From sequence record PP301342.1: DNA of 64,000 nt; one strand, given 5' to 3'. The translations under genes and the position numbers were made by a program. Positions 4,436 through 59,435 of this stretch are shown piece by piece. This DNA is from Escherichia phage UE-M3. Numbering within the stretch: the stretch's first letter is position 1; each line of letters begins with the position of its first letter. The notes under the pieces are model-generated. The model made no database searches and was not told the origin of the DNA. It worked only from the letters and a program-made list of their open reading frames with translations.

Positions 4436-4922
4436 AGGTTGGCCTTATCTTCTGGTGGTGGTCCTTGGGGCCACCATTTACTTTTGGGGCAATTCCAATG
4501 GGCAGTCTACTGTTCAAAAGAAATGGGATGCCCAAAAGGTCGAAGACCAAAAGGCAACGCAAAAATTACAGGACAAATACAATGCTCTCCAAAGAAACCA
4601 TAGTTATGAAGTCGGGTTACTCACTTCCCGGTTGCAGACGGCTGAGAGTAATTACGCAAGCGAGCTTGCTCGCGTTAGCAGTGATTACGACAGCCGGATG
4701 CAACAGTCTGAAAGACGAGCATCGGTATATAAACGTCAAGCCGAAGCCGGAACCCTTGAGTGCAGAAGTCTTGCAAGCCATGCAGCCAGACTCGACAATA
4801 GTCTTGAAGAAGGCAGACGTTTGGTTGAAGAACTCCGGGCAACTGTTAGACTCCGTGACAGCCAACTAATTGAGTTGGGTAAACAGATTCAGGCTGACCG
4901 TAAACTTTTTGAACAGGAATAA
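4416..4922 (+). CDS. i-spanin (Rz-like): N-terminal TM anchor then coiled-coil periplasmic domain
   Basis: ATG 4416 with GGAGG 6 nt upstream; [19 protein letters not shown]; Q/E/R-rich helical remainder; position immediately after endolysin. Confidence 0.6.
4606..4869 (+). CDS. o-spanin (Rz1-like) lipoprotein embedded in +1 frame inside the i-spanin gene
   Basis: Frame +1 ORF wholly inside 4416..4922; signal-like [32 protein letters not shown] with lipobox-like TAGC then Pro-rich mature part; alternative start 4582. Confidence 0.5.
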   Translation: MKSGYSLPGCRRLRVITQASLLALAVITTAGCNSLKDEHRYINVKPKPEPLSAEVLQAMQPDSTIVLKKADVWLKNSGQLLDSVTAN

Positions 4923-4924
4923 CT

Positions 4925-7195
4925 ATGGAACACCAAGACACTTTTAAGCCTTTACCAGACCCGGCTCAATCAGAGAAGTTAACGGACTGGAAGAAGGAAC
5001 CAAGTATCCAATTACTGAAGGGTGATTTGGAATCTGCTAAACCTGCTCACGATGCAATCATGGCACAGATTCGTGAGTGGAATGATTTAATGGAAGTAAA
5101 GGGTAAGGCTAAACCCCCAAAGGTTAAGGGACGCTCGCAAGTCCAGCCTAGACTGGTTCGCCGTCAGGCAGAGTGGCGTTATGCTCCATTGTCTGAACCA
5201 TTCCTCTCGTCTAACAAACTATTTAAGGTAACTCCGGTTACTTTTGAAGATGAGTTAGCTGCACGCCAGAATGAGCTAGTTCTTAACTACCAATTCCGTA
5301 CTCAGCTTAATAAAGTAAAACTGGTAGATGATTACGTGCATAGTGTCGTAGATGACGGTACTGGTATTGCTCGTATTGGTTGGGAACGTAAGACAGTTAA
5401 GATTAAAACAGAAACACCAGTCTTCCAGTTGTACCCAATTGAGAACCAGGAACAAGCAGATATTCTTCAGCAGGCTTTGCAGCTTCAGGCAGAGAATCCT
5501 CGTGAGTATGATGAAACGATGCCAGAAGATATTAAGGAAGCTGTTAACTACTTCAATGAAACTGGAGAAGCTACTTATGCAATTCAGACAGGGGTCACTG
5601 AAGTAGAAGTAGAAAAAGCACTGGTTAACAGACCTACCGTTGAAATGCTTAATCCTAATAACGTAGTTATTGACCCAAGCTGTAATGGTGATTTGGACAA
5701 GGCTCTTTATGCAGTCATCTCATTTGAGACTTGTAAAGCAGACCTCATGAAAAACAAGGACCGTTACCACAACCTGGATAAGATTGACTGGGAAAGTTCC
5801 AGTCCTATGACTGACCCAGACCATGAAAGTAAAACTCCAGGTGACTTCCAGTTTAAGGATGCACTTCGCAAGAAAGTAATTGCTTATGAGTACTGGGGAT
5901 TCTACGACATTAACGATGATGGTTCGCTGGAACCAATTGTTGCTACCTGGATTGGTTCTACTCTTATTCGTATGGAGAAGAACCCATTCCCAGATGGTAA
6001 GTTACCATTGGTAGTTGTTCCTTATATGCCTCGTAAACGTGAACTCTATGGTGAAGCTGATGCTGAATTGCTAGGAGATAACCAAGCAATTCTTGGTGCA
6101 ACCATGCGTGGGATGATTGACCTGTTGGGCCGAAGTGCAAATGGTCAACGTGGTTATCCTAAAGGGATGTTAGATACCCTGAACCGTCGTCGATACGATG
6201 ATGGACAAGACTACGAATATAACCCAATGCAGGGCAATCCTAGTCAGGCCATTATGGAACACAAGTTCCCTGAGTTACCCCAGTCGGCAATAGTAATGAC
6301 TCAGATGCAAAACCAGGAAGCAGAAGCACTAACGGGTGTTAAAGCATTCTCGGGTGGTGTAACTGGTGAAGCTTACGGAGATGTAGCTGCTGGTATTCGT
6401 GGTGTACTAGATGCAGCATCCAAACGTGAGATGGCAATCCTTCGTCGATTAGCTAAGGGTATGGCAGACATTGGTACTAAGATTTGTGCAATGAATGCTG
6501 TGTTCTTATCTGAGAAAGAAGTAGTACGTATTACTAACGAGCAGTACGTAGAGATTAACCGTGAAGACCTTAAAGGTAATTTCGACATTGAAGTTGATAT
6601 TAATACTGCTGAGATTGATAACCAGAAATCCCAGGACTTGAGCTTCATGGTTCAAACGTTAGGTAATACGGTTGACCAGACTATTACGTTATCTCTTGTA
6701 GCTAAGATTGCAGAACTTAAACGTATGCCAGACCTTGCTCATGAGTTACGTACATGGCAACCACAACCAGACCCTATGGAAGAACAGCTTAAGCAATTGG
6801 CAATTCAGAAAGCACAGCTTGAGAACGAAGAGCTGCAAAGTAAGATTGCACTCAATATGGCTAAGGCTAAAGAGGCTGCTTCTAGTGGTGACCTTAAAGA
6901 TCTGGATTATCTGGAACAGGAATCTGGTACTAAACATGCTCGTGACATGGAAAAACAAAAAGCACAATCCCAAGGAAACCAAAACCTTCAGATAACTAAG
7001 GCGTTGACAACACCTACTAAAGAAGGTGAAACTACCCCCAACATATCTGCTGCTGTTGGATATAACGCTTTGACTAACGGGAACTCTATACCAGAACGTG
7101 ACTTAGCTGCACAACAAGACCCAGCTTATTCACTTAGTTCCCAATTCTATGACCCTAGCCAAGACCCAGCATCGGCTCTTGGCATGAACTTGTAA
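4925..7195 (+). CDS. Portal protein
   Basis: 756 aa, AGGA Shine-Dalgarno; size and position (upstream of capsid gene) match N4 gp59-like portal as recalled (~760 aa). Confidence 0.75.
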
Positions 7196-35531: not shown

Positions 35532-36508
35532 GATGGAAAATATCTCTCTCTTTGTTTGCAAATGGATGCGACAGGGCAGTATAAACAACGCTTAACCTGC
35601 CCCTCCACGACCTTGATAGCACCCTTGCCACCTTTTTCAGCCATGAAGATACGAGCAGATGCCATATCGTCAAAGTTTTTGGTACTTCTGGCTCCAGGCA
35701 TATCTACCTTAGAAGCATCAGAGAAGTATTTGAACTGTGGCTCTGTTCGCCACAACTCCTCGTCAGTACATTCAGGAATTTCCTCTTCAGGAGCATCCCA
35801 GTACTTTTCGATGAGATGTATCTTCTCTTCTACCCAACGTTCAGTCTTATCGACAGATAACAACGGAATATCCTTATGCATAATACGATTAGCAGGATAG
35901 TTCGGATTGCTATTAGCCATGTGTTTCATGAAGTCAGTGAAGATGTAGTTAATACGGATTACATCCTCGGTAATGATGTCGTTGTGAATCCAACGGTACA
36001 AGCTACCTTGCATCTTGTGTTCATCATCACGGGAACCAGCAACCCAGGAATAGGTTGAGGTAGACTTAAAGTCTTGCAATAGACCTTCTGTTACGATGTC
36101 GAACTTACCCCCGATAGTCCAACCCTTAACTACCCTGGTTCCACGTTGTTCAATGTAGATTGGGATAAGGTCAGGGTTAGCATCAAAGTCTGCTTTGGTT
36201 GGGTTAATGACTACTGCATCAATTACTCGCTGAGGATAGCCCAGCTTCTTCAATGCAGTCTTATGACCCAGCTTCCAGGCTTTCTCAATAGAATCGTGTA
36301 AGCCAGTACCCATTGATGTGGAGACAAAATCCATAACATCAATTGACTGGTCACTGAGGTCTACACGATGCTTCATGACGATTTGCTTAAGTGGCTTAAG
36401 CAGTGTGGTTACAGACAGATACTTAGGATTGTCTACATAATCATACTCGTCATGTAATAGCCATACAGCCAGGGCCAGCGAGACATCATGGTTGTTGGTT
36501 ATCTTCAT
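35528..36508 (-). CDS. Nuclease-like protein with C-terminal Cys cluster (PD-(D/E)xK / Cas4-RecB-like?)
   Basis: 326 aa; C-terminal CLYCPVASIC; replication-module context. Confidence 0.4.
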   Translation of the reverse strand: MKITNNHDVSLALAVWLLHDEYDYVDNPKYLSVTTLLKPLKQIVMKHRVDLSDQSIDVMDFVSTSMGTGLHDSIEKAWKLGHKTALKKLGYPQRVIDAVVINPTKADFDANPDLIPIYIEQRGTRVVKGWTIGGKFDIVTEGLLQDFKSTSTYSWVAGSRDDEHKMQGSLYRWIHNDIITEDVIRINYIFTDFMKHMANSNPNYPANRIMHKDIPLLSVDKTERWVEEKIHLIEKYWDAPEEEIPECTDEELWRTEPQFKYFSDASKVDMPGARSTKNFDDMASARIFMAEKGGKGAIKVVEGQVKRCLYCPVASICKQRERYFPS

Positions 36509-36975
36509 CAGTAAGTAATCCTGTATCTATGCACCTGGTTCCAACGAATACTCTCTACCTCATCGAAGCTATAGCTGACTATGTTATCTAGTTCACCTTT
36601 GTACGCTACCTCAATGAACTGAAAGTTCACTGTTAGATAAGGCTTTCCATTCCCCGGGTAATGCCAGCATCTCCCAGTAGCAGTGATATCTGTGGCAGGT
36701 AATTCATCTACTAACTTCTCTTTAGTAAGAATACGATTAGCGTAATGAACCAATTTCTCACAGTCATAAACTGAAGTGTTTCCAGGTTTACCATTACCCA
36801 TACGGGCAGCAGCATTTCGCCATAGAGCTTTAAAGGCACAACCTTCATCGAAGGTCATGCCCAGCGCTTGGATAATATCCTCACACTCTGCTTGGTATGG
36901 CTCTTGCTCTTTCCGTTGGGGATTCTTAATTGTAACTACATAGTAGTTATTAAGACCACCGGAGAGCTTAGTCAT
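36508..36975 (-). CDS. Hypothetical protein
   Basis: 155-aa ORF tightly packed in operon. Confidence 0.5.
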   Translation of the reverse strand: MTKLSGGLNNYYVVTIKNPQRKEQEPYQAECEDIIQALGMTFDEGCAFKALWRNAAARMGNGKPGNTSVYDCEKLVHYANRILTKEKLVDELPATDITATGRCWHYPGNGKPYLTVNFQFIEVAYKGELDNIVSYSFDEVESIRWNQVHRYRITY

Positions 36976-49216: not shown

Positions 49217-49659
49217 TAGAATGACCTTAGATAGTTGGTGATACCACTACGGTTTTCTGTAATTTTCTTAACCTGAACATATACCAGCTTAAACTCACTA
49301 CGGGGTAGTTCTTGTAATACTGCTACACCTTCAGTAAGGGCCACAGAACACGCTACAGCGGTTTCTTTTTTAAAGGAGTATAAGTCTTCATACATGAGGG
49401 CTTCATACTCCCTGCGGAGCATACAGAGAGCATCTCTTGCCTTATCACTTACTTCTTGTGAACCAGCAGACATAGCTAAGCTGTATATGATAAAGATTTG
49501 TTCAAAAACAAAGTCCAGTAATCTATCAGGATTGTTAGTCCCCATGAATAATTTTGATGTGTAGGAACGGGCTTTACGGTTGAGTTCATACTCATCCTCT
49601 ATGCCTTTATTGTAAAGAACAGGATTTCGTTCCCTTTTCCGTAGGAATGGGATACGCAT
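49216..49659 (-). CDS. Hypothetical protein
   Basis: 147-aa ORF, start adjacent to upstream stop. Confidence 0.5.
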   Translation of the reverse strand: MRIPFLRKRERNPVLYNKGIEDEYELNRKARSYTSKLFMGTNNPDRLLDFVFEQIFIIYSLAMSAGSQEVSDKARDALCMLRREYEALMYEDLYSFKKETAVACSVALTEGVAVLQELPRSEFKLVYVQVKKITENRSGITNYLRSF

Positions 49660-50048
49660 TAGTATTTACTACCTCTTCTATACCAAGGGTAATGATGGGT
49701 AGTGCTCTTGCCTTTGAACACATCCTTAGTACGAGGATTCTTTTGTATTTGAGCCAGGTAAAGATGCATTTCGTCGTAACACGGACTAAGCCAGAACTTA
49801 TCTATGATTCGGTCTACCTTAGATTTCAGATGAGGTTCTGGTGGAATATATGAAGAAGTATTAAAAGGTTTTCTAGTAGTCCAATTCTTCATAATAATAT
49901 TTTGCATTACTGCATAAACATCAGGACCAATTCCATTCTCTTCTACTTGATCATGGATAGTTTTACCCAAAGTAAGCATTGCAGTTTGTTCCAGCTTACT
50001 TAAGTCCAGTCCTTGCAGGATAGACTTACCATTTTGTCTGCTTGACAT
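49659..50048 (-). CDS. Hypothetical protein
   Basis: Track start 50150 lies upstream of a terminator hairpin; ATG 50048 chosen downstream of it. Confidence 0.4.
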   Translation of the reverse strand: MSSRQNGKSILQGLDLSKLEQTAMLTLGKTIHDQVEENGIGPDVYAVMQNIIMKNWTTRKPFNTSSYIPPEPHLKSKVDRIIDKFWLSPCYDEMHLYLAQIQKNPRTKDVFKGKSTTHHYPWYRRGSKY

Positions 50049-50721: not shown

Positions 50722-51228
50722 TTATTTTGAAGGTCTAGCAGCTACTGGTTTGTTTTCCTGATTCTGATACTTACCATTGTAATTAGCAGGTTCTTGAACC
50801 AGATGAAATAATACTTGAGCTATCCCAGCACCAGCCGGGATATGCAATTTCTTACGACCGTGATAGACCAGTTCGAGGGTAAGATACCCTTTCCATCCTG
50901 GTTCTATTACGGTATTGAACACTGATAATGCACGTCTTGCCCATGTAGACTTATCGTGAACGATTGCTACACAGGACGGGGACATGTTGAACTTCTCAAT
51001 TGCTGAGGCCAAGGCGAACTTACCGAGATGGCGTGATACTTGATTTCCATCAACGACTTTCACCATTGGAATCAGCCCAAATAAGCGATAGAAGGTAATA
51101 TCTTGTTTGATACGAATATCATAACCAGCTTCACCTAATCCATAGCTTACACCATGCTCTGATACCTTATGGTCTGGGACATCCAGCAACTGAGATGAAC
51201 GGTATAGAGAATTACCATTAACAACCAT
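50722..51228 (-). CDS. dCTP deaminase / dUTPase-fold protein
   Basis: 168 aa; IEPGWKGYLTLELVYHG matches dCTP deaminase (V/I)DPGY.G.LTLEL motif. Confidence 0.65.
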   Translation of the reverse strand: MVVNGNSLYRSSQLLDVPDHKVSEHGVSYGLGEAGYDIRIKQDITFYRLFGLIPMVKVVDGNQVSRHLGKFALASAIEKFNMSPSCVAIVHDKSTWARRALSVFNTVIEPGWKGYLTLELVYHGRKKLHIPAGAGIAQVLFHLVQEPANYNGKYQNQENKPVAARPSK

Positions 51229-52403
51229 TATTTCATTCCTTTAGGGATATGAACTACCTCCCCAAAAGGTACGGTAGCATTGGGATTATTCAGAACACAC
51301 CAGATGATAGGAATATCAAATGGTAATTCTTCCATTGGACGAACATACATATCGGAGAATATGATTGCAGCGGTTGGTTTATTCTTAATAATCCACTCGC
51401 GTACTGGTTCCAGGTTTGTACCACCACGACCGGTAATCTTAATCTCTTCAAAAGTATCTTCTTCAGTGATGTCTATCTCTTCTTGGATAATATCGTCGAA
51501 GGTAATTAAGGACATCTTCTTAGGATTGAACTGGCTCTTAACGTAGGCAACCTCTGAGTTAAAACGCAGAGAGTCAGCACTACTAATAGAACCAGATACA
51601 TCCTCAAAGTAGGCTAAGTGTCGTAAGCGTCCTTCATCATCTTCCATGGAAGGTAGATAGATGTCAGTAAAACGACGGTTAGGTCTGGCCCACGTATAAT
51701 GAGTATCGTCAATGTCGGTAAAGAAGTTCATGAGGACTTCCTGCCATGGAACCACTGGTTTAAGGAATTGGGTAATAACCTCTTCCATACGACCAGCACC
51801 CTTACCGGGCATCTGTCCACCAGCCATTTTCTGGCTCTGCATTGCTCGTACTACGTTGTTGACGACAGCACCCTGGGACTGCCCCGAAGTGGGGGATTTC
51901 ATGTCGCCAGCAAGACCTGCTCCAGCACCCCCTGACGGCTTCTGCCTTTTCTGAGGGTTCTTCATCAGGTCATCGTAGATGTCTTCTTCGACCCATCCTT
52001 TATATTGAGGGTCTTTGCAAATACCTTTATCAATGCCAGTGAACTTATAACCATCTTCTTCTAACTGAAGGTTAATGAAGTGGTCACACGCCTGGTTCCA
52101 GATTTCTGGGTCACGGCTTCCACGACGGATGCCATGCAGATATGCCACATGCCAAAGTTCATGCATTAACACTGTTTCTCTGGCATCTGGACACATCCAG
52201 ATAAAGAAATCTGGATTGAAGTGAAGTTCTATCCCATCAGTACATGCAGTGGGACAATTCTCACGTTTCCATGAGAACTTAAGACTACATAGTAATGAAC
52301 CAAAGAACGCAGCACTGCGTCCGAGAAATGCGTTGGCCTGTATTCTATCGTATTCCCTCATTAACTGTTCATCAGTGAGGTTATGTGGTGGTATGTTATT
52401 CAT
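51228..52403 (-). CDS. vWA-domain protein with N-terminal HExxH metallopeptidase-like domain (DUF2201-like)
   Basis: 391 aa; HELWHVAYLH motif; C-terminal vWA-like SGSISS...GRGGTNL...IIFSDMY; partner of adjacent MoxR-like ATPase. Confidence 0.55.
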   Translation of the reverse strand: MNNIPPHNLTDEQLMREYDRIQANAFLGRSAAFFGSLLCSLKFSWKRENCPTACTDGIELHFNPDFFIWMCPDARETVLMHELWHVAYLHGIRRGSRDPEIWNQACDHFINLQLEEDGYKFTGIDKGICKDPQYKGWVEEDIYDDLMKNPQKRQKPSGGAGAGLAGDMKSPTSGQSQGAVVNNVVRAMQSQKMAGGQMPGKGAGRMEEVITQFLKPVVPWQEVLMNFFTDIDDTHYTWARPNRRFTDIYLPSMEDDEGRLRHLAYFEDVSGSISSADSLRFNSEVAYVKSQFNPKKMSLITFDDIIQEEIDITEEDTFEEIKITGRGGTNLEPVREWIIKNKPTAAIIFSDMYVRPMEELPFDIPIIWCVLNNPNATVPFGEVVHIPKGMK

Positions 52404-52879
52404 TAAGATGCTCCATGATTTATATGGTAACCCAATAATTTTTCTGCTTCCTTTCTGGCTGTAATGGCCTCTTGTTTACTGTTAAACTTTCCTAAGTAAA
52501 TTTGTTTACCATTATCATTTATATGGGCAGCCCAGATTTTATCTCGGGTGTGCCAGTAAACTCCTGTCACACCTGATGTATTTGTAATTCTCTTGGTTTG
52601 ATTTTTGCAATTAATCGAGTTTGTTACTAAACGGAAATTGCTTGGGTAATTATTTAATCTATTATGGTCAATATGGTCTACCTGCATACCGTCAGGAATT
52701 GGTCCAATCTCCATTTCATAAATTATGCGGTGAACTAAATGCATTTTCTTGTTACATTTAACACGCAAATACCCACTGTTATCCAAACAACCGGCAATGG
52801 CACCTGCTTTTACGCAGCCCCTGCTTACTTTCCAGTAGAGGGAACCATTGCTATAAACAAATAGTTCATGCCAATTCAT
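52403..52879 (-). CDS. HNH homing endonuclease with AP2-like DNA-binding domain
   Basis: 158 aa; VDHIDHNRLNNYPSNFRLVTNSINCKNQ HNH motif; SGVTGVYWHTRDKIWAAHI AP2-like; inserted between AAA ATPase and vWA genes with 1-nt overlap. Confidence 0.75.
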   Translation of the reverse strand: MNWHELFVYSNGSLYWKVSRGCVKAGAIAGCLDNSGYLRVKCNKKMHLVHRIIYEMEIGPIPDGMQVDHIDHNRLNNYPSNFRLVTNSINCKNQTKRITNTSGVTGVYWHTRDKIWAAHINDNGKQIYLGKFNSKQEAITARKEAEKLLGYHINHGAS

Positions 52880-52883
52880 TATT

Positions 52884-53936
52884 TTATCCGTGAATGTAAC
52901 GAGAGATATTAGCAGCAGCCTTACGCCATTCAGGTGTAGCCTGAAGTTCTGGCAATGCTCTGCCTACTGTACGGAAGTACAGAATCTTATGGGTGAACGT
53001 TTTAAAGCGTTCAATGTACTGAAGAACATCAGAGAAGTTTTCTTCAGTAGTTTTGTTAGCCAGGTGGTTAACAGTAGCCCAACACAGGTTGTTATCTTCC
53101 GGTAGTGCACAGCCCAGAGGGTCTTTGACTACTTTCTCAATCGTAATCATACGATTGTATACCTGAGTGAATTGAACAAACTCTGTAGCCTTACCAGCAG
53201 TAACATGTCCTGCGTAGTAGATAGAATCTTCATCTGGCAGAGCACCTTCAGGACGGTTCTTGAGGTCTTTGTTAACAAAGTCCCAGGTGCGTGGGCAACA
53301 GAACGTTTTGTTCTTATGGGCTGGGTCGAAGTCATGCAGATAACCTGGGTTAGCATGTAAGAATGCAACCAGACGTTCATCCCATTCTTGTGGAATCATT
53401 ACATCTTCAACAAAGATGTCGAAGTTAAGTTCCATTTCGAAGTGAACCACGCGAGACTGCATTGCAGTGCCCAGTGGGTTAACAATGGCACGGTCAGTAG
53501 CTTTGTTACCAGCACATATAATCATCACATTAGGATGGAGTTTTTTCTGACCAGTCATACGGTCCAGAATCAGTTTGTATGCAGCAGCTACTACTTCTTT
53601 TCTGGCTGAGTTGAACTCATCAAGGAACAGGAGCCAACCATTATATCCTTCCGGTATCTCATCCCCCTCAATAGGGAATAAGTCAGCGAATGGGATAAAC
53701 TCTGCACGGTCACCATTACGGAATGGTAGACCAGACAAATCCTCTGGGGCAGAAGTAGACAGACGATGGTCTATCAGTTTCATACCAAATTCTTCTGCAA
53801 CAGAGCGAATAATTGCAGATTTACCCATTCCCGGTGATGAAGTCAGGAACGGTACGTTACCTGCTTGCAGGGCACGGATAATAAAGTTACGGGCCTGACG
53901 TGTATTACATATGGTCAGTGAGTCAATGCTCGCCAT
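52884..53936 (-). CDS. AAA+ ATPase, MoxR-like (AAA_5)
   Basis: 350 aa; Walker A SSPGMGKSAI; Walker B LLFLDEFN; arginine finger region. Confidence 0.7.
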   Translation of the reverse strand: MASIDSLTICNTRQARNFIIRALQAGNVPFLTSSPGMGKSAIIRSVAEEFGMKLIDHRLSTSAPEDLSGLPFRNGDRAEFIPFADLFPIEGDEIPEGYNGWLLFLDEFNSARKEVVAAAYKLILDRMTGQKKLHPNVMIICAGNKATDRAIVNPLGTAMQSRVVHFEMELNFDIFVEDVMIPQEWDERLVAFLHANPGYLHDFDPAHKNKTFCCPRTWDFVNKDLKNRPEGALPDEDSIYYAGHVTAGKATEFVQFTQVYNRMITIEKVVKDPLGCALPEDNNLCWATVNHLANKTTEENFSDVLQYIERFKTFTHKILYFRTVGRALPELQATPEWRKAAANISRYIHG

Positions 53937-55030: not shown

Positions 55031-55864
55031 TTATTCTACAACAGTAATAGCGATGGTTACATCGACCTTACCGTTGGTAACTACTACAGAAGTAGCTTCA
55101 CCAGCAGCCACTGGTTTAACCGTCAATACGTTACCGGCAATGGTAGCCGTAGCACGGGCAGAATCTGGGGTAGTCTTAATAGACAAAGTACCAGCAGATG
55201 AACCAACAGGCATAGCAGCAATGGTTACAGTCTTACCGGCAGCAGTATCATCAGCAACAGACAGAGCCAGTGAATCAGGAGTAGCTACCAGTGAGCTTGC
55301 TTCATAGTAGCCTACTGCCAGCAACGACGTATCTTCTACAGTGGTTCCATTGGCATCAGTAACAATCACTTTATAAGTACCAGCAGAAGCAGCGGTTACG
55401 TCATTAAGGGTTAATGTTGCAGTAGCAGCAGATGGGTTAGTACTAGAGCTAATATCAGTGAATGCTGCACCAGCAGTATCAGCTTTGAACTGCCATTTAT
55501 AAGTAAATGGTGCTTTACCGCCTGCTACATCAACATGCCAGTTAATATCTTCGCCTTCGATAGCAGAGATTACACGAGGCAGTTTAGTAGCAACAGTCAG
55601 TCGTGGAGTAGCTTTCATGTCAATAGAGATGGCTTGCATATCCACGATGTTGTTAGGCCAGAAGCCTGCTTCAGCAGGGTTTTTAGCAGAACGTTTATAC
55701 AGCAGATCACGTACACCGTGAAAGATAACTAAACTATCCGGGTAAGTGGCATCCGGATGCACAAAAGTACCTACCTCTACGGAACCACCCGGGATAGAAC
55801 CCCCTGCATCCAGTACAGTTGCAACATTGGTGGTTTTGTTAAAACCTACTTTTAAAGTTGGCAT
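55031..55864 (-). CDS. Ig-like domain protein, probable capsid decoration protein (N4 gp17-like by position)
   Basis: Track ORF to 55993; ATG 55864 preceded by GAGGA; Thr/Ala/Val-rich beta-strand repeats incl. FTYKWQFK...AGTYKVIVTD Ig-like. Confidence 0.55.
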   Translation of the reverse strand: MPTLKVGFNKTTNVATVLDAGGSIPGGSVEVGTFVHPDATYPDSLVIFHGVRDLLYKRSAKNPAEAGFWPNNIVDMQAISIDMKATPRLTVATKLPRVISAIEGEDINWHVDVAGGKAPFTYKWQFKADTAGAAFTDISSSTNPSAATATLTLNDVTAASAGTYKVIVTDANGTTVEDTSLLAVGYYEASSLVATPDSLALSVADDTAAGKTVTIAAMPVGSSAGTLSIKTTPDSARATATIAGNVLTVKPVAAGEATSVVVTNGKVDVTIAITVVE

Positions 55865-55911
55865 ATGAATTTCCTCATAAGTAAATAGCAGGATTAGTAT
55901 ACATGACATGT

Positions 55912-55940
55912 AAAAAAATAAACCCTCCGTTAAGAGGGTT
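55912..55940 (-). terminator. Rho-independent terminator (minus strand)
   Basis: aaccctc-cgttaa-gagggtt stem with A-rich run on + side. Confidence 0.5.
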
Positions 55941-56136
55941 AGTTGTTTACACAGTAGATAGCAAAAGCTATCCATCCTGCCATTACAAAGCATCCTAGTG
56001 AGTATGCTCCATAGTAGCAGTAAGCAAACTTAGACTTGTGGGCACGAACTATCGTAGCCAGAATCAGTACAGATAAAACTATCAGTATTAGCTGAGAGAT
56101 TACTTCAAAATTGATAAGCATAGTTGCTACCTCCAA
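55939..56136 (-). CDS. Small membrane protein
   Basis: 65 aa, two hydrophobic segments. Confidence 0.4.
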   Translation of the reverse strand: MEVATMLINFEVISQLILIVLSVLILATIVRAHKSKFAYCYYGAYSLGCFVMAGWIAFAIYCVNN

Positions 56137-56179
56137 GCAAAAAATAAAGCCCCACTCCCGAAGGAATGAGGCTAGTTTA

Positions 56180-57397
56180 TTAACTTAATGCATAATCTGT
56201 TTCTAGAATGTCTTGCCAGAGGCTGTCATCCAGCTTACCAGCAGAGAACTCTTGTCCCAGTACTTGAGACAGAATGAAGCCCAGTAAGTCACTCTTAGCA
56301 ATGTCAGACAGAATCTGATTGTACTGACGACGCAGGTCATTACCATAGTTAGGGTGGCAACGGAAGCAATCATGTACAGTCATTACAGGGAATGGTTTCT
56401 TAGGCATAGTGTCGATCATATCTGCTACTACTTGACGGTCTACCAATGCAATAGTATTCGGGTCAAGGAAGTCTAGGATAGACAGCGACAGGAATCCTGA
56501 CCTTTCATAATGATTCCAGATTTCCATAGTCTTCTCTTGGTTCCCCTCAATAACGGGGTATTCACTTGGCCCGATATCGCACAGTTCCCGTACATAGGCA
56601 ACCAGTTTAGGGTCGAAGTTACAACGACGTAGCATCTCACGTACTACCATCCCATCAATAGAGTGAGTGATGTTAGCAGAGAGCATACGGGTCTTCTCTT
56701 CAGTACCCTGAACCATACGAGTGATGTCAAATGGTTTACCCAAGAAGTTAACAGTCTGTACTTCAAGAACCATGACTTTAATGACAGCATGGAAGTTGTC
56801 AGGGAGTACCCATATGTAACGGTTAGCATCCGGGTTACCACATTGCAGTAAGAACTTGTTAAGTGCCCAAGGACCACTTGCAACTGTTTCCATTACATTT
56901 TCAAAAGTCTTGAGACGGATACCTTCCCCGAATACTTCTTTAGGTTTGGCTTCTGAACCGTAGAATGCAGTCATAACTGCCTGCTTGGTATCACTACGTT
57001 TAATACGGGATGCTTCACCAAGGATGTCCAGCATCTTGTGATATATAACTGTATAAGCATCACGTCGTAATGGCTTACCATTCTCTCCCATGTAATTAAC
57101 TACGTTACACAGTTCAGCAGCAGAGCGGTCACCAGTCAGGCAGGCCAGTAACTGCAAGCCTGATGATGTAGCATCCAGGGCTACGGCATATCCGATAGGC
57201 TTACCAGCTTTCATATCTTTCCATGCGTTTACACCAGCATAGAACAGTGCAGATTCCTCAGCTTCATCTACCAGATTAAGCAAGTTAGCTTCATTCTCAT
57301 CGAACCAAGCAATACGCTCATCCCAGGTCTTTTTATCCAGACCATAGTTATTGGCGATGTCTACTTTCAGGTATTCTTTAGCGGTTAACAGTTGCAT
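56180..57397 (-). CDS. Phage RNA polymerase II catalytic subunit (T7-like single-subunit RNAP palm/fingers)
   Basis: Track start 57478 overlaps HNH gene; ATG 57397 has AAGGA Shine-Dalgarno giving 405 aa (N4 p7 recalled ~404 aa); motifs VALDATSSGLQ, KQAVMTAFYGS, TVHDCF. Confidence 0.75.
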   Translation of the reverse strand: MQLLTAKEYLKVDIANNYGLDKKTWDERIAWFDENEANLLNLVDEAEESALFYAGVNAWKDMKAGKPIGYAVALDATSSGLQLLACLTGDRSAAELCNVVNYMGENGKPLRRDAYTVIYHKMLDILGEASRIKRSDTKQAVMTAFYGSEAKPKEVFGEGIRLKTFENVMETVASGPWALNKFLLQCGNPDANRYIWVLPDNFHAVIKVMVLEVQTVNFLGKPFDITRMVQGTEEKTRMLSANITHSIDGMVVREMLRRCNFDPKLVAYVRELCDIGPSEYPVIEGNQEKTMEIWNHYERSGFLSLSILDFLDPNTIALVDRQVVADMIDTMPKKPFPVMTVHDCFRCHPNYGNDLRRQYNQILSDIAKSDLLGFILSQVLGQEFSAGKLDDSLWQDILETDYALS

Positions 57398-57443
57398 TTT
57401 ATGTTCCTTAGCGTCTGAGCCATTTGGCTCGCATAGTGGGTAG

Positions 57444-57950
57444 TTATTGACCGTGACGGTTAGTATAGCCAGCACCATTCTGGTTCAAGGCTTCTAACAT
57501 GTCGGCTCGTGCATCACATGCTTGTTGGAATGCGAACTCGTAGCCGTATTTCTTAACTGAGAATACTTTACACCTCTGTTTCTTTGTGATGTTGTCCGTA
57601 CATGTAGCACGCCAGAATAACCCCTTTGGTGAATCCCATAGAGATACACCAGTTACCCCAGATTTATTGTCTGAACGTTTAGTAGAGTTACGCAGGTTGA
57701 CTACAATGGGAACACATCGCAAGTTACACCAGCGGCAGTCCGTTCTGATACCGTTGATGTGGTCAATTGTATAACCAGCAGGGATAGATCTATGCTTCAT
57801 TTCCCACAACCAACGGTGAAGGTATAAGATTTTATTTCCACGAGAGATGCGAATGTACCCAGTGGCACTATTCGCTGCCTCCGGTGGATGGGCTACAGCA
57901 AGTTCATCAACTGACTTGTTCCAGTAGCCCATTGGCATACGCTCTTTCAT
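57444..57950 (-). CDS. HNH homing endonuclease with AP2-like domain, inserted between the two RNAP II subunit genes
   Basis: 168 aa; IDHINGIRTDCRWCNLR HNH motif and SGVTGVSLWDSPKGLFWRA AP2-like; start overlaps upstream stop. Confidence 0.75.
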   Translation of the reverse strand: MKERMPMGYWNKSVDELAVAHPPEAANSATGYIRISRGNKILYLHRWLWEMKHRSIPAGYTIDHINGIRTDCRWCNLRCVPIVVNLRNSTKRSDNKSGVTGVSLWDSPKGLFWRATCTDNITKKQRCKVFSVKKYGYEFAFQQACDARADMLEALNQNGAGYTNRHGQ

Positions 57951-58768
57951 TAATCCTCATTAACAAGTTCTTTTTCTGCAAATTCTAGGACTGCTTTATT
58001 CCAAGAAGTCCCTTGGTAGTTACAGTGATAGCCCTGAGCGTAAGTACGCCCACGTTTGTCATATTTGTGACCCAGTGAGAAGTTATTACCTTCTTTGGTC
58101 ACTAACTCCATTACTTCCTTAGCAGTACGGCTGTACTTCTCAAAGGCTTTAACACGTTTCTCATATTCCTGACGGGTTTCACCCTCTTTGGGCTTATCCA
58201 TATTAGGACGAGAGTCTTTTACATAGTTAGCAACGTCCCAGTTGATACTTAGACGCTGATTATTCATACGGTTGATGTGATCAAGACAGACATCCATCTC
58301 ATGATGGTTCTTCTTGAGGATGATACTTCCCCTGCTCTCGTAGTAACCTGTATCACGGTTACACAGAACAGGCTTAGGAGCACTTACGATAGGTAATGGA
58401 TACTGGAATGCTTCCAGTTCCATCTGAACATCTTCACTAATCTCGTAGATAACACCGAACTTGTCGATGGTAGGGTCATAGTTGAAGCAGTCATTCTCTG
58501 CCATCTTATACAGACAGTCAGCGATGTACTGAGCATCATCTGAATGGCTCATAAGAGAGCCAATCATAGTCTGAAGGTCAGCACGTTTATGTAGGGCAAT
58601 CTGCACCATTGCATCAATGAGCAGCTTATAATCAATTTCCAAATAGGCAGCGAATGCCTTAAAGTCAATTTCTTCGGAGTCCTCAAATTCCTTCCTCATG
58701 CGAGGGAGTAATTGATTTTTGTTGAAAAGAATTTCGAGTTGCTTCTGATGTTCAATGGATGAGTACAT
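57950..58768 (-). CDS. Phage RNA polymerase II small subunit (N-terminal-domain-like)
   Basis: 272 aa (N4 p4 recalled ~269 aa); AGGAGA Shine-Dalgarno; directly downstream of hairpin promoter. Confidence 0.55.
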   Translation of the reverse strand: MYSSIEHQKQLEILFNKNQLLPRMRKEFEDSEEIDFKAFAAYLEIDYKLLIDAMVQIALHKRADLQTMIGSLMSHSDDAQYIADCLYKMAENDCFNYDPTIDKFGVIYEISEDVQMELEAFQYPLPIVSAPKPVLCNRDTGYYESRGSIILKKNHHEMDVCLDHINRMNNQRLSINWDVANYVKDSRPNMDKPKEGETRQEYEKRVKAFEKYSRTAKEVMELVTKEGNNFSLGHKYDKRGRTYAQGYHCNYQGTSWNKAVLEFAEKELVNED

Positions 58769-58790
58769 CGCTTATTCTCCTAAATGTGAT

Positions 58791-58816
58791 TAATAACCAA
58801 AAGCTGCGGAGCAGCT
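58791..58816 (-). promoter_or_regulatory. Hairpin promoter of N4 virion-RNAP type (P3-like), driving the RNAP II operon
   Basis: agctgc-GGA-gcagct 6-bp stem / 3-nt GGA loop preceded by aaccaaa; 34 nt upstream of gene start 58768. Confidence 0.6.
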
Positions 58817-58821
58817 ATTAC

Positions 58822-59082
58822 CTAACGTTTAGTCCAAAAGGTAATACGAATACTGTTCTCTTGACCAAGGTAGTCAATACGTACATATAAACCATTACCA
58901 CTAAACTCGTTATTTTTCTTCTGGTAAGGCCATACCAGACTACGCATAGGTATTTTAATTAAACCAGATATGTGACCTAGTTTAGTACGATCCTTTAGTT
59001 CGTTTTGTAATGCACAATAGATATCATGCCGTGTAAGTGCTCTGGCTCTGACTTGAGCAGTCCACAGTTCTTCATAAGTCAT
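58822..59082 (-). CDS. Small early hypothetical protein
   Basis: 86-aa ORF. Confidence 0.45.
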   Translation of the reverse strand: MTYEELWTAQVRARALTRHDIYCALQNELKDRTKLGHISGLIKIPMRSLVWPYQKKNNEFSGNGLYVRIDYLGQENSIRITFWTKR

Positions 59083-59084
59083 TA

Positions 59085-59435
59085 TTAACTCCAGTAGTTG
59101 TAAGCATCGCCTAAGTGTTTACGCCATGCTTCGGGTAACAGTACATTTCCGGTTACATTAATGAACTGGTATGGGTCCAGGTAGTCATTACTCATGACTT
59201 TGAAATCCCATTGTGGATTGGCAGATGCATAAGCAATAAAGCCCTCAATGAAGCCATAGATAGCACCCTCTTTGATACGGTTACCATTGCCATCTCTTAC
59301 TGGAATAGCAAAGCTATTACCATAATGACCATAGGCCATACCCCAACGAGCACCATGCTTCTTATAAGCTAACTTGGCAGAAGCATTGGTATGTTGTCCT
59401 AGTGTATTGGTAGTGAATACGAATATTTCTTTCAT
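59085..59435 (-). CDS. Early hypothetical protein
   Basis: 116-aa ORF. Confidence 0.45.
   Translation of the reverse strand: MKEIFVFTTNTLGQHTNASAKLAYKKHGARWGMAYGHYGNSFAIPVRDGNGNRIKEGAIYGFIEGFIAYASANPQWDFKVMSNDYLDPYQFINVTGNVLLPEAWRKHLGDAYNYWS

Follow-up and report, generated by a model that had tools for sequence, protein, structure and literature searches.

Organization of the locus

In phage N4, the two subunits of RNA polymerase II are encoded by adjacent genes (gp15, 4603..5412, and gp16, 5460..6674) separated by a 47-bp gap, as a preliminary description of the present locus had correctly stated for their adjacency. In the window analyzed here, a 64,000-nucleotide stretch of Escherichia phage UE-M3 (PP301342.1), a free-standing endonuclease gene lies between the corresponding genes. 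This arrangement raises the question of whether the gene came to this position by homing, what was exchanged along with it, and which DNA the enzyme might recognize. The features of the locus are listed below in the order of the sense strand.

58802..58816, minus strand: terminator-like hairpin just upstream of RNAP1 (pattern scan only)
57950..58768, minus strand: RNAP1, small subunit of the N4-type RNA polymerase II, gp15 homolog, 272 aa (phrog_2166)
57948..57958, minus strand: stop/start junction GAGGATTAATG, sense GAG GAT TAA TG (sequence reading)
57444..57950, minus strand: predicted HNH(N)-AP2 homing endonuclease gene, free-standing, 168 aa (ORF translation, Pfam, PHROGs)
57398..57443, minus strand: RNAP2 spacer, 46 nt, "type A" allele (alignment with relatives)
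56180..57397, minus strand: RNAP2, large catalytic subunit, gp16 homolog, 405 aa (phrog_2051, PF00940)
56148..56173, minus strand: terminator-like hairpin with 11 pairs and a T-run, directly after the RNAP2 stop (pattern scan only)

The ORF, its coordinates, and the Pfam and PHROGs matches all agreed with the HNH-AP2 gene and TAATG overlap that had been read from the letters. The region was 100% identical to that of Escherichia phage UE-S5a (PP175015.1; Gamaleyavirus, Schitoviridae), which was used as the carrier genome in the comparisons with relatives, and in which the same ORF is annotated as CDS UES5a068, "HNH homing endonuclease." RNAP1 matched phrog_2166 ("N4-like RNA polymerase") with an E-value of 5.7e-116 and shares 68% amino acid identity with N4 gp15, and RNAP2, read from the ATG at 57397, matched phrog_2051 (E 5.8e-175) in addition to PF00940. 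The longest mechanical ORF of RNAP2 starts from 57478; the homologs all begin at 57397 (MQLLTA...). In the RNAP2 translation, the aspartates of both T7-type motifs, A (LDATSSG) and C (HDCF), were read directly, and the earlier assignment of this gene as the catalytic subunit was therefore right.

On the sense strand, the endonuclease ATG (57950..57948) shares one base with the RNAP1 TAA (57952..57950), and a Shine-Dalgarno-like GAGGA precedes this ATG within the final RNAP1 codons, which suggests that translation of the endonuclease gene is coupled to that of RNAP1. The same GAGGAY-TAATG junction was found in survey locus L018, Mimir124, pSb-1, and HK2, with ATGA-type overlaps instead in HN03 and L069; orthologs either keep the overlap with the RNAP1 stop or have an AGGAG of their own. 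The more distant orthologs of loci L072, L045, L091, and L079 have no start/stop overlap with RNAP1; within the 30–40 nt that follow the RNAP1 stop, they have in common a conserved short motif (..TGGGTATCA.. or ..TGGTTATCA..), with AGGAG between it and the ATG. This motif could be a promoter or regulatory element travelling with the endonuclease gene.

Because terminator-like hairpins bracket the three genes and the pattern scan detected none between 58802..58816 and 56148..56173, RNAP1, the HNH gene, and RNAP2 probably constitute one early transcription unit. The endonuclease gene is not inside an intron or intein: RNAP1 terminates at a stop codon of its own, RNAP2 is provided with a separate ATG and Shine-Dalgarno sequence, and a search of 55900..59100 against Rfam, made to detect a group I intron or any further structured RNA, returned no family at E ≤ 1.

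The hairpin of the type A spacer (57417..57430) is weak, with 5 bp and a folding z of −1.05 as compared with −4.17 for the type B spacer; the spacer also contains the RNAP2 Shine-Dalgarno sequence AAGGAA (57404..57409). The hairpin was considered as an endonuclease-linked terminator or regulator and rejected; since it is weak, lacks a T-run, and is also present in the endonuclease-free N4, it belongs to the operon and not to the endonuclease gene. In the spacer loci compared (57398..57443 on the minus strand, L003 2719..2774, and L010 5413..5459), the type B spacer, present in most Gamaleyaviruses and in Enquatrovirus Jura, forms a strong 9-bp hairpin (GGCUCUCC-AUA-GUGGGGAGCC), and the type A hairpin (z about −1) occurs in N4, UE-S5a, and Mimir124. 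UE-S5a and Jura, both endonuclease carriers, each have the spacer allele typical of the other's genus.

Domain composition and integrity of the endonuclease

In the 168-aa protein, Pfam identified HNH_3 (PF13392) at residues 43–82 (E 2e-14; 53.3 bits against a cut-off of 24.8) and AP2 (PF00847) at about residues 105–151 (E 1.1e-6; 29.2 bits, under the gathering cut-off of 33.3), and the PHROGs match was phrog_99, "HNH endonuclease" (E 4.9e-33). HNH_3 was matched by 9/9 aligned orthologs (best E 7.7e-21) and AP2 likewise by 9/9 at E ≤ 0.01 (best 1.4e-10). The putative catalytic residues (D-H/N/N), D63-H64, N76, and N88, were invariant across these orthologs, whose identity ranges from 52 to 94%.

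A profile built from the orthologs reached I-HmuI of phage SPO1 (PDB 1U3E; E 3.6e-5; query positions 38–109), aligning its DH...NLR...N region with D63/H64/N76/N88, and matched apicomplexan AP2 transcription-factor chains at E 0.015–0.08. The PDB search with the single sequence had yielded only a coat protein at E 0.79, a chance match, and the lineage profile was needed to find I-HmuI. Among solved structures, I-HmuI, which nicks one strand, comes nearest to the catalytic core and has the H-N-N motif variant in common with it. Unlike the UE-M3 enzyme, it is encoded in a group I intron and carries other DNA-binding modules and no AP2, and the likeness between the two is limited to about 70 residues.

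The dN/dS of the endonuclease gene against the 94%-identical ortholog was 0.13, and no decayed copy was found among the nine aligned orthologs. Together with the invariant catalytic residues and the presence of both domains in every ortholog, this ratio demonstrated that the gene is intact and under purifying selection. The protein would thus be expected, from these features, to nick or cleave DNA and to home. An "HNH endonuclease" is included among the proteins found by proteomics of the UE-S5a particle, with no specification of which of the genome's two HNH genes encodes it (PMC11927229), so that the entry is ambiguous with regard to expression of the focal gene; the paper describing UE-S5a does not discuss the HNH endonuclease gene between the polymerase genes.

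Distribution among relatives and boundaries of the exchanged tract

Among 60 related GenBank records matched by megablast, only UE-S5a and UE-M6 carry the gene. One study reported these two phages and the gene-free UE-S5b, all isolated on a single UPEC host and about 99% identical to one another. UE-S5b and PBM-3 lack the endonuclease gene, and their flanks are 99.5–99.7% identical to those of the carrier. The other occupants of the gap were as follows.

Empty gap with a 56-bp spacer: EC1-UPM, phi G17
Gap with a 79-aa ORF: PBM-3, UE-S5b, and others of equal span
Gap with a 53-aa ORF: ECBP1, PhAPEC5
Gap with both small ORFs (79-aa and 53-aa): IME11
Gap with a second HNH_3+AP2 gene, just 31% identical to the focal one: Mimir124
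Gap with a 193–204-aa endonuclease VII/NUMOD1-type gene: pSb-1, HK2, G7C

The 53-aa and 79-aa ORFs belong to PHROGs of unknown function (phrog_15352 and phrog_5444, respectively). They were considered as endonuclease remnants and rejected, having no Pfam match and no similarity to the HNH protein.

The relatives without the gene (UE-S5b, PBM-3, and N4) delimited the exchanged tracts. Between UE-S5a and PBM-3, there are three mismatches from 60268 to 58124, and dense differences of 3-nt periodicity begin at 58024 and extend as far as the RNAP1 stop. Beyond it, the endonuclease gene and spacer cannot be aligned, a few differences fall in RNAP2 codons 6–14, and near-identity resumes thereafter. 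The identity is 99.7% in the RNAP1 body, 66.7% in the last 84 nt of RNAP1, and 99.5% in the RNAP2 body, and the exchanged block, at about 58024..57356, is bounded by sharp identity breaks. Two coding stretches belong to it.

57953..58024, minus strand: recoded RNAP1 3′ tail, last 24 codons, in the imported cassette; differences mostly at third codon positions
57356..57397, minus strand: first 14 codons of RNAP2, with the last cassette-linked differences at 57379–57377, 57359, and 57356; right-hand edge of the tract

Relative to its nearest relatives, UE-S5a has therefore undergone a cassette replacement, in which the 79-aa ORF, the last 24 RNAP1 codons, and the spacer were swapped, and did not simply gain a gene at a vacant site of the N4 type. 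The proposal of an intron-less homing insertion stands insofar as the gene looks recently acquired, is sporadic, and lies outside any intron or intein, and needs revision with regard to the manner of its arrival. With 2/60 records carrying the gene and such breaks in its flanks, the pattern is not that of an ancestral gene present in all relatives within conserved surroundings.

In UE-M6, the block is base-for-base equal to that of UE-S5a, and 13 extra private SNPs are located at 58118–58445, which would fit a longer tract from the same type of donor. For the RNAP1 tail, the best matches among GenBank phages reached about 83% or less, except for the identical tail in UE-M6, and those among IMG/VR loci at most 76.5%; with no close match in either sample, the donor of the tail is unsampled. 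Enquatrovirus Jura, compared with N4, provides a second, independent case of a mosaic tract with an endonuclease gene: their flanks are 98.6% identical, a dense tract extends from −85 to the RNAP1 stop, and the endonuclease gene and spacer follow, the Jura spacer sharing 92% identity with the Gamaleyavirus type but only 70% with that of N4. Flanks of the co-conversion type were thus found in UE-S5a/PBM-3, in UE-M6 (longer), and in Jura/N4.

UE-S5a and UE-S5b are 98.98% identical over 27 kb, and the endonuclease block is one of about four divergent patches between them. The other patches or indels (49500..50000, 55250..55500, and 36000..36750), of which that at 55 kb lies in the region of a Hoc-like head-decoration gene, represent further mosaic exchange points among these co-isolated phages.

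Variation of the inter-subunit gap across the family

Measured between the stop of RNAP1 and the start of RNAP2, the gap ranged from −4 to about 3500 bp in the 76 Schitoviridae loci containing both subunits and was shorter than 100 bp in only 9 of them; the values for L030, L045, and L079/L090 were set by hand, RNAP2 itself being split there. This natural variation weakens the concern, raised in the preliminary description, that the insertion may affect subunit stoichiometry, and such an effect seems unlikely to matter. At least four nuclease families occupy the gap, namely two HNN-AP2 lineages, the phrog_1035 endonuclease VII/NUMOD1 type, a phrog_374 HNH, and a 178-aa HNH_3 protein, alongside non-nuclease ORFs such as phrog_15352, phrog_5444, and a ParA-like ORF (recognized by eye). 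The gap is therefore a hot spot of plasticity in general, and cassettes could be moved there by ordinary recombination.

RNAP2 is in turn interrupted in three lineages, at about residue 141–143 (L030 5274..6080; L045 6488..7263; L079 7829..8706, also L090) by an insert of about 780–880 bp with a 190–202-aa Cys-rich endonuclease VII-like ORF, resulting in a three-piece RNA polymerase II that matches the report on phage ZC08 (Amgarten et al., 2017). The 139–149-aa N-terminal RNAP2 piece has a PHROGs family of its own, phrog_20599. In Shigella phage pSb-1 (L005, 501..1717), RNAP2 is annotated as two overlapping CDSs (gp55 and gp56) with a stop near the end of the translation, which is probably a frameshift or sequencing error and no true split.

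An ortholog lineage faithful to one site

The survey covered 78 IMG/VR Schitoviridae loci found with the RNAP1 alignment. In seven of the contigs, orthologs with 49–94% amino acid identity lie directly after the RNAP1 stop (offset −34 to +37), and with UE-S5a, UE-M6, Jura, and Burkholderia phage HN03, the same junction is occupied in 11/11 ortholog genomes. The insertion address remains constant although RNAP1 identity drops to 43%. In bacterial genomes, the search for orthologs found none, distant HNH relatives reaching ≤38% over the full length.

In 24/36 pairs, the endonuclease exceeded both polymerase subunits in conservation (71% against 45% in one case), for which horizontal spread is the simplest explanation. 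Between UE-S5a and L018, the RNAP1 body is 90% identical, the endonuclease gene 93.8%, and the RNAP1 tail 72.6%; inheritance of the tail is therefore not strictly tied to that of the gene, and the tail generally varies far more than the gene and the RNAP1 body do. For UE-S5a and Jura, the nucleotide identity of the gene (70.6%) is close to that of the flanks (66–70%), and this pair by itself would not require a recent transfer.

Candidate target site and proposed mechanism

As the lineage spans genera, its enzyme must recognize conserved coding DNA. A candidate emerged from the comparison of allele columns.

58004..58006, minus strand: Ser codon TCT in YQGTSWNKA, candidate immunity/target-site marker (allele column comparison)

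At the serine codon of YQGTS(W/Y)NKA, TCN in the alleles adjacent to an endonuclease gene (7 alleles) was perfectly separated from AGY in those with none (11 alleles), a comparison that spans three endonuclease families and two genera, with counts not phylogenetically corrected and with two clean sister contrasts. The comparison comprised the final 90 nt of RNAP1 and the initial 60 nt of RNAP2, and no columns in it separated the two classes other than the first two bases of this codon (58006..58005). Since the TCN/AGY switch occurs in both sister contrasts, UE-S5a/PBM-3 and Jura/N4, we hypothesize that ...GGAACCAGY..., about 50 nt ahead of the RNAP1 stop, forms part of the target and that recoding of this site confers immunity.

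The proposed mechanism would proceed as follows. The endonuclease gene would be transcribed together with the early RNAP1-RNAP2 operon, and its translation would be coupled to RNAP1 via GAGGA...TAATG. During co-infection, the enzyme would act on a related phage whose allele lacks the endonuclease gene, nicking or cutting it in conserved coding sequence by the junction, the best guess for the cut site being the RNAP1 tail near ...CAGGGAACCAGY..., about 50 nt before the stop. Repair off the endonuclease-carrying genome would then copy not only the gene but also the recoded RNAP1 tail and the spacer, and the carrier itself would be immune through synonymous recoding of the tail (Ser TCN, not AGY).

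Homing versus other origins

Taken together, we consider it likely that the ORF is a functional free-standing HNN-AP2 homing endonuclease gene, whose lineage is specialized on the gene junction of the split N4-type RNA polymerase II, and its transfer is presumably driven by the enzyme rather than by general recombination. It seems improbable that the inter-subunit gap is instead a generic site of cassette exchange, a recombination hot spot between conserved polymerase sequences, at which the HNH gene is a passenger exchanged through ordinary homologous recombination by co-infecting phages, with a nuclease not aimed at this locus. The wide range of gap lengths, the many non-nuclease ORFs in the gap, and the mosaic patches elsewhere between UE-S5a and UE-S5b, which have no endonuclease, would all be expected of such a passenger; however, it would account poorly for the gathering of at least four distinct nuclease families at one gap, the confinement of the focal lineage to the junction in all of its genomes, an endonuclease often better conserved than its flanks, and the linkage between RNAP1 tail recoding and the presence of the gene.

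Distinctly less plausible is a domesticated protein, kept because it benefits the phage and not simply selfish, either by excluding N4-like competitors through cutting of their polymerase operon or by AP2-mediated regulation of the operon. The strong purifying selection, the lack of decayed copies among the nine orthologs, and the inferred early co-transcription with the operon are compatible with such a role, but the gene is dispensable, being absent from about 97% of close relatives, and a purely regulatory role would not need invariant catalytic residues. Competitor exclusion, moreover, is the same biochemical act as homing and hence a refinement of it, not an alternative. That the gene stood between the subunits already in the Enquatrovirinae ancestor and was deleted in most lineages, not gained in UE-S5a, is highly improbable despite the similar identities of gene and flanks between UE-S5a and Jura, as deletion cannot yield a 67%-identical tail in an otherwise 99.7%-identical RNAP1 and leaves unexplained the different spacer allele and the 79-aa ORF replacement, and as the Gamaleyavirus-type spacer in the N4-type backbone of Jura and the 24/36 pairs with endonuclease identity above flank identity also speak against it.

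Beyond the homing of this one lineage, the GAGGAY-TAATG junction and the TCN marker are common in Enquatrovirinae to three families (the two HNN-AP2 lineages and endonuclease VII/NUMOD1), and turnover is faster in the RNAP1 tail than in the endonuclease genes, which hints at competition or replacement of endonucleases at one target. We tentatively raise the possibility, with more doubt than confidence, that the RNAP1/RNAP2 junction is a long-running battleground on which several unrelated endonuclease families compete for one target. If true, the junction would offer a natural system for the replacement of one endonuclease by another with target recoding in an essential split gene, and live support for the notion that such elements created and maintain the two-subunit (in some phages three-piece) polymerase.

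Relation to known systems

The "G7C-type" split RNA polymerase II, with HNH genes between RNAP1 and RNAP2 in G7C and EE36P1, zero to eight spacer genes, and an endonuclease within RNAP2 of phage ZC08, has been described previously, and endonuclease insertion was proposed to have split an ancestral single-chain T7-like polymerase (Amgarten et al., 2017, BMC Genomics 18:346, PMC5418858). The UE-M3 locus conforms to this organization, with RNAP1 and RNAP2 both intact and parted by an unrelated gene, and resembles it in the HNH-type endonuclease gene and the variable spacing. The occupant in G7C, however, is an endonuclease VII/NUMOD1 protein (phrog_1035) of another family than the HNN-AP2 protein of UE-M3, and the earlier work describes neither the HNN-AP2 lineage and its fidelity to one site nor the recoding of the RNAP1 tail and the near-isogenic phages that differ in having the gene (PMC5418858). 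On a T7-like polymerase profile in PHROGs, RNAP1 residues 118–271 mapped to 228–425 and RNAP2 residues 6–150 to 427–596; this contiguity fits the idea of a split ancestral polymerase.

A comparable case, cited as analogous by the same authors (PMC5418858), is nrdA/mobE of Aeromonas phage Aeh1 ("genes in pieces"), in which an endonuclease gene likewise separates two halves of an essential enzyme, which are translated individually and nevertheless assemble. The Aeh1 split is lineage-specific and recent, whereas that of RNA polymerase II is common to all N4-like phages sampled, and any causal insertion would thus be ancient and unprovable from present data.

The stand-alone position between or inside essential genes, the sporadic occurrence, and the co-transfer of flanking DNA are also characteristic of SegB, SegF, SegG, and MobE of T4-like phages, for which the mechanism of "intronless homing" is described in the SegB and mobE papers (PMC2330249, PMC2790892). 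Those enzymes are of the GIY-YIG or Mob-type HNH class, with cleavage and marker exclusion demonstrated, whereas the UE-M3 enzyme is known from sequence and has AP2 as its DNA-binding module. HNN-AP2 endonucleases are themselves a recognized phage class, found in Xanthomonas phages Xp10/OP1/Xop411, T5, RB16/RB43, and others (Lee et al., 2007, PMC2248197; Petrov et al., 2010, PMC2993671), and, like the UE-M3 gene, these free-standing phage genes combine an HNN nuclease with AP2. In contrast to the Xanthomonas phage genes, reported as dispersed, without conserved flanks, and often decaying, the UE-M3 lineage is site-faithful and intact in 9/9 orthologs.

The gene was already annotated in GenBank (UE-S5a), and the arrangement and the gene-splitting hypothesis were published in 2017, so that the discovery value is small. 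New here are the site-faithful HNN-AP2 lineage, a natural pair of phages of which one has the gene and the other lacks it, and a candidate immunity marker and target-site prediction (TCN versus AGY). The practical value resides in the experimental system, as UE-S5a/UE-M6 versus UE-S5b permit a direct homing cross, and the TCN/AGY serine difference is a specific and cheap hypothesis for the recognition site. These phages have been proposed for therapy, and designers of cocktails should bear in mind that Gamaleyaviruses can exchange the endonuclease cassette on co-infection.

The genome contains a second free-standing HNH(N)-AP2-like ORF, listed below.

52403..52879, minus strand: HNH(N)-AP2-like ORF, 158 aa, 34% identical to the focal protein

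It lies between a gp24-like AAA ATPase gene (52884..53936) and a 391-aa gene (51228..52403), with the start of which it shares one base. It is also present in UE-S5b and UE-M6 and is hence non-polymorphic among these siblings.
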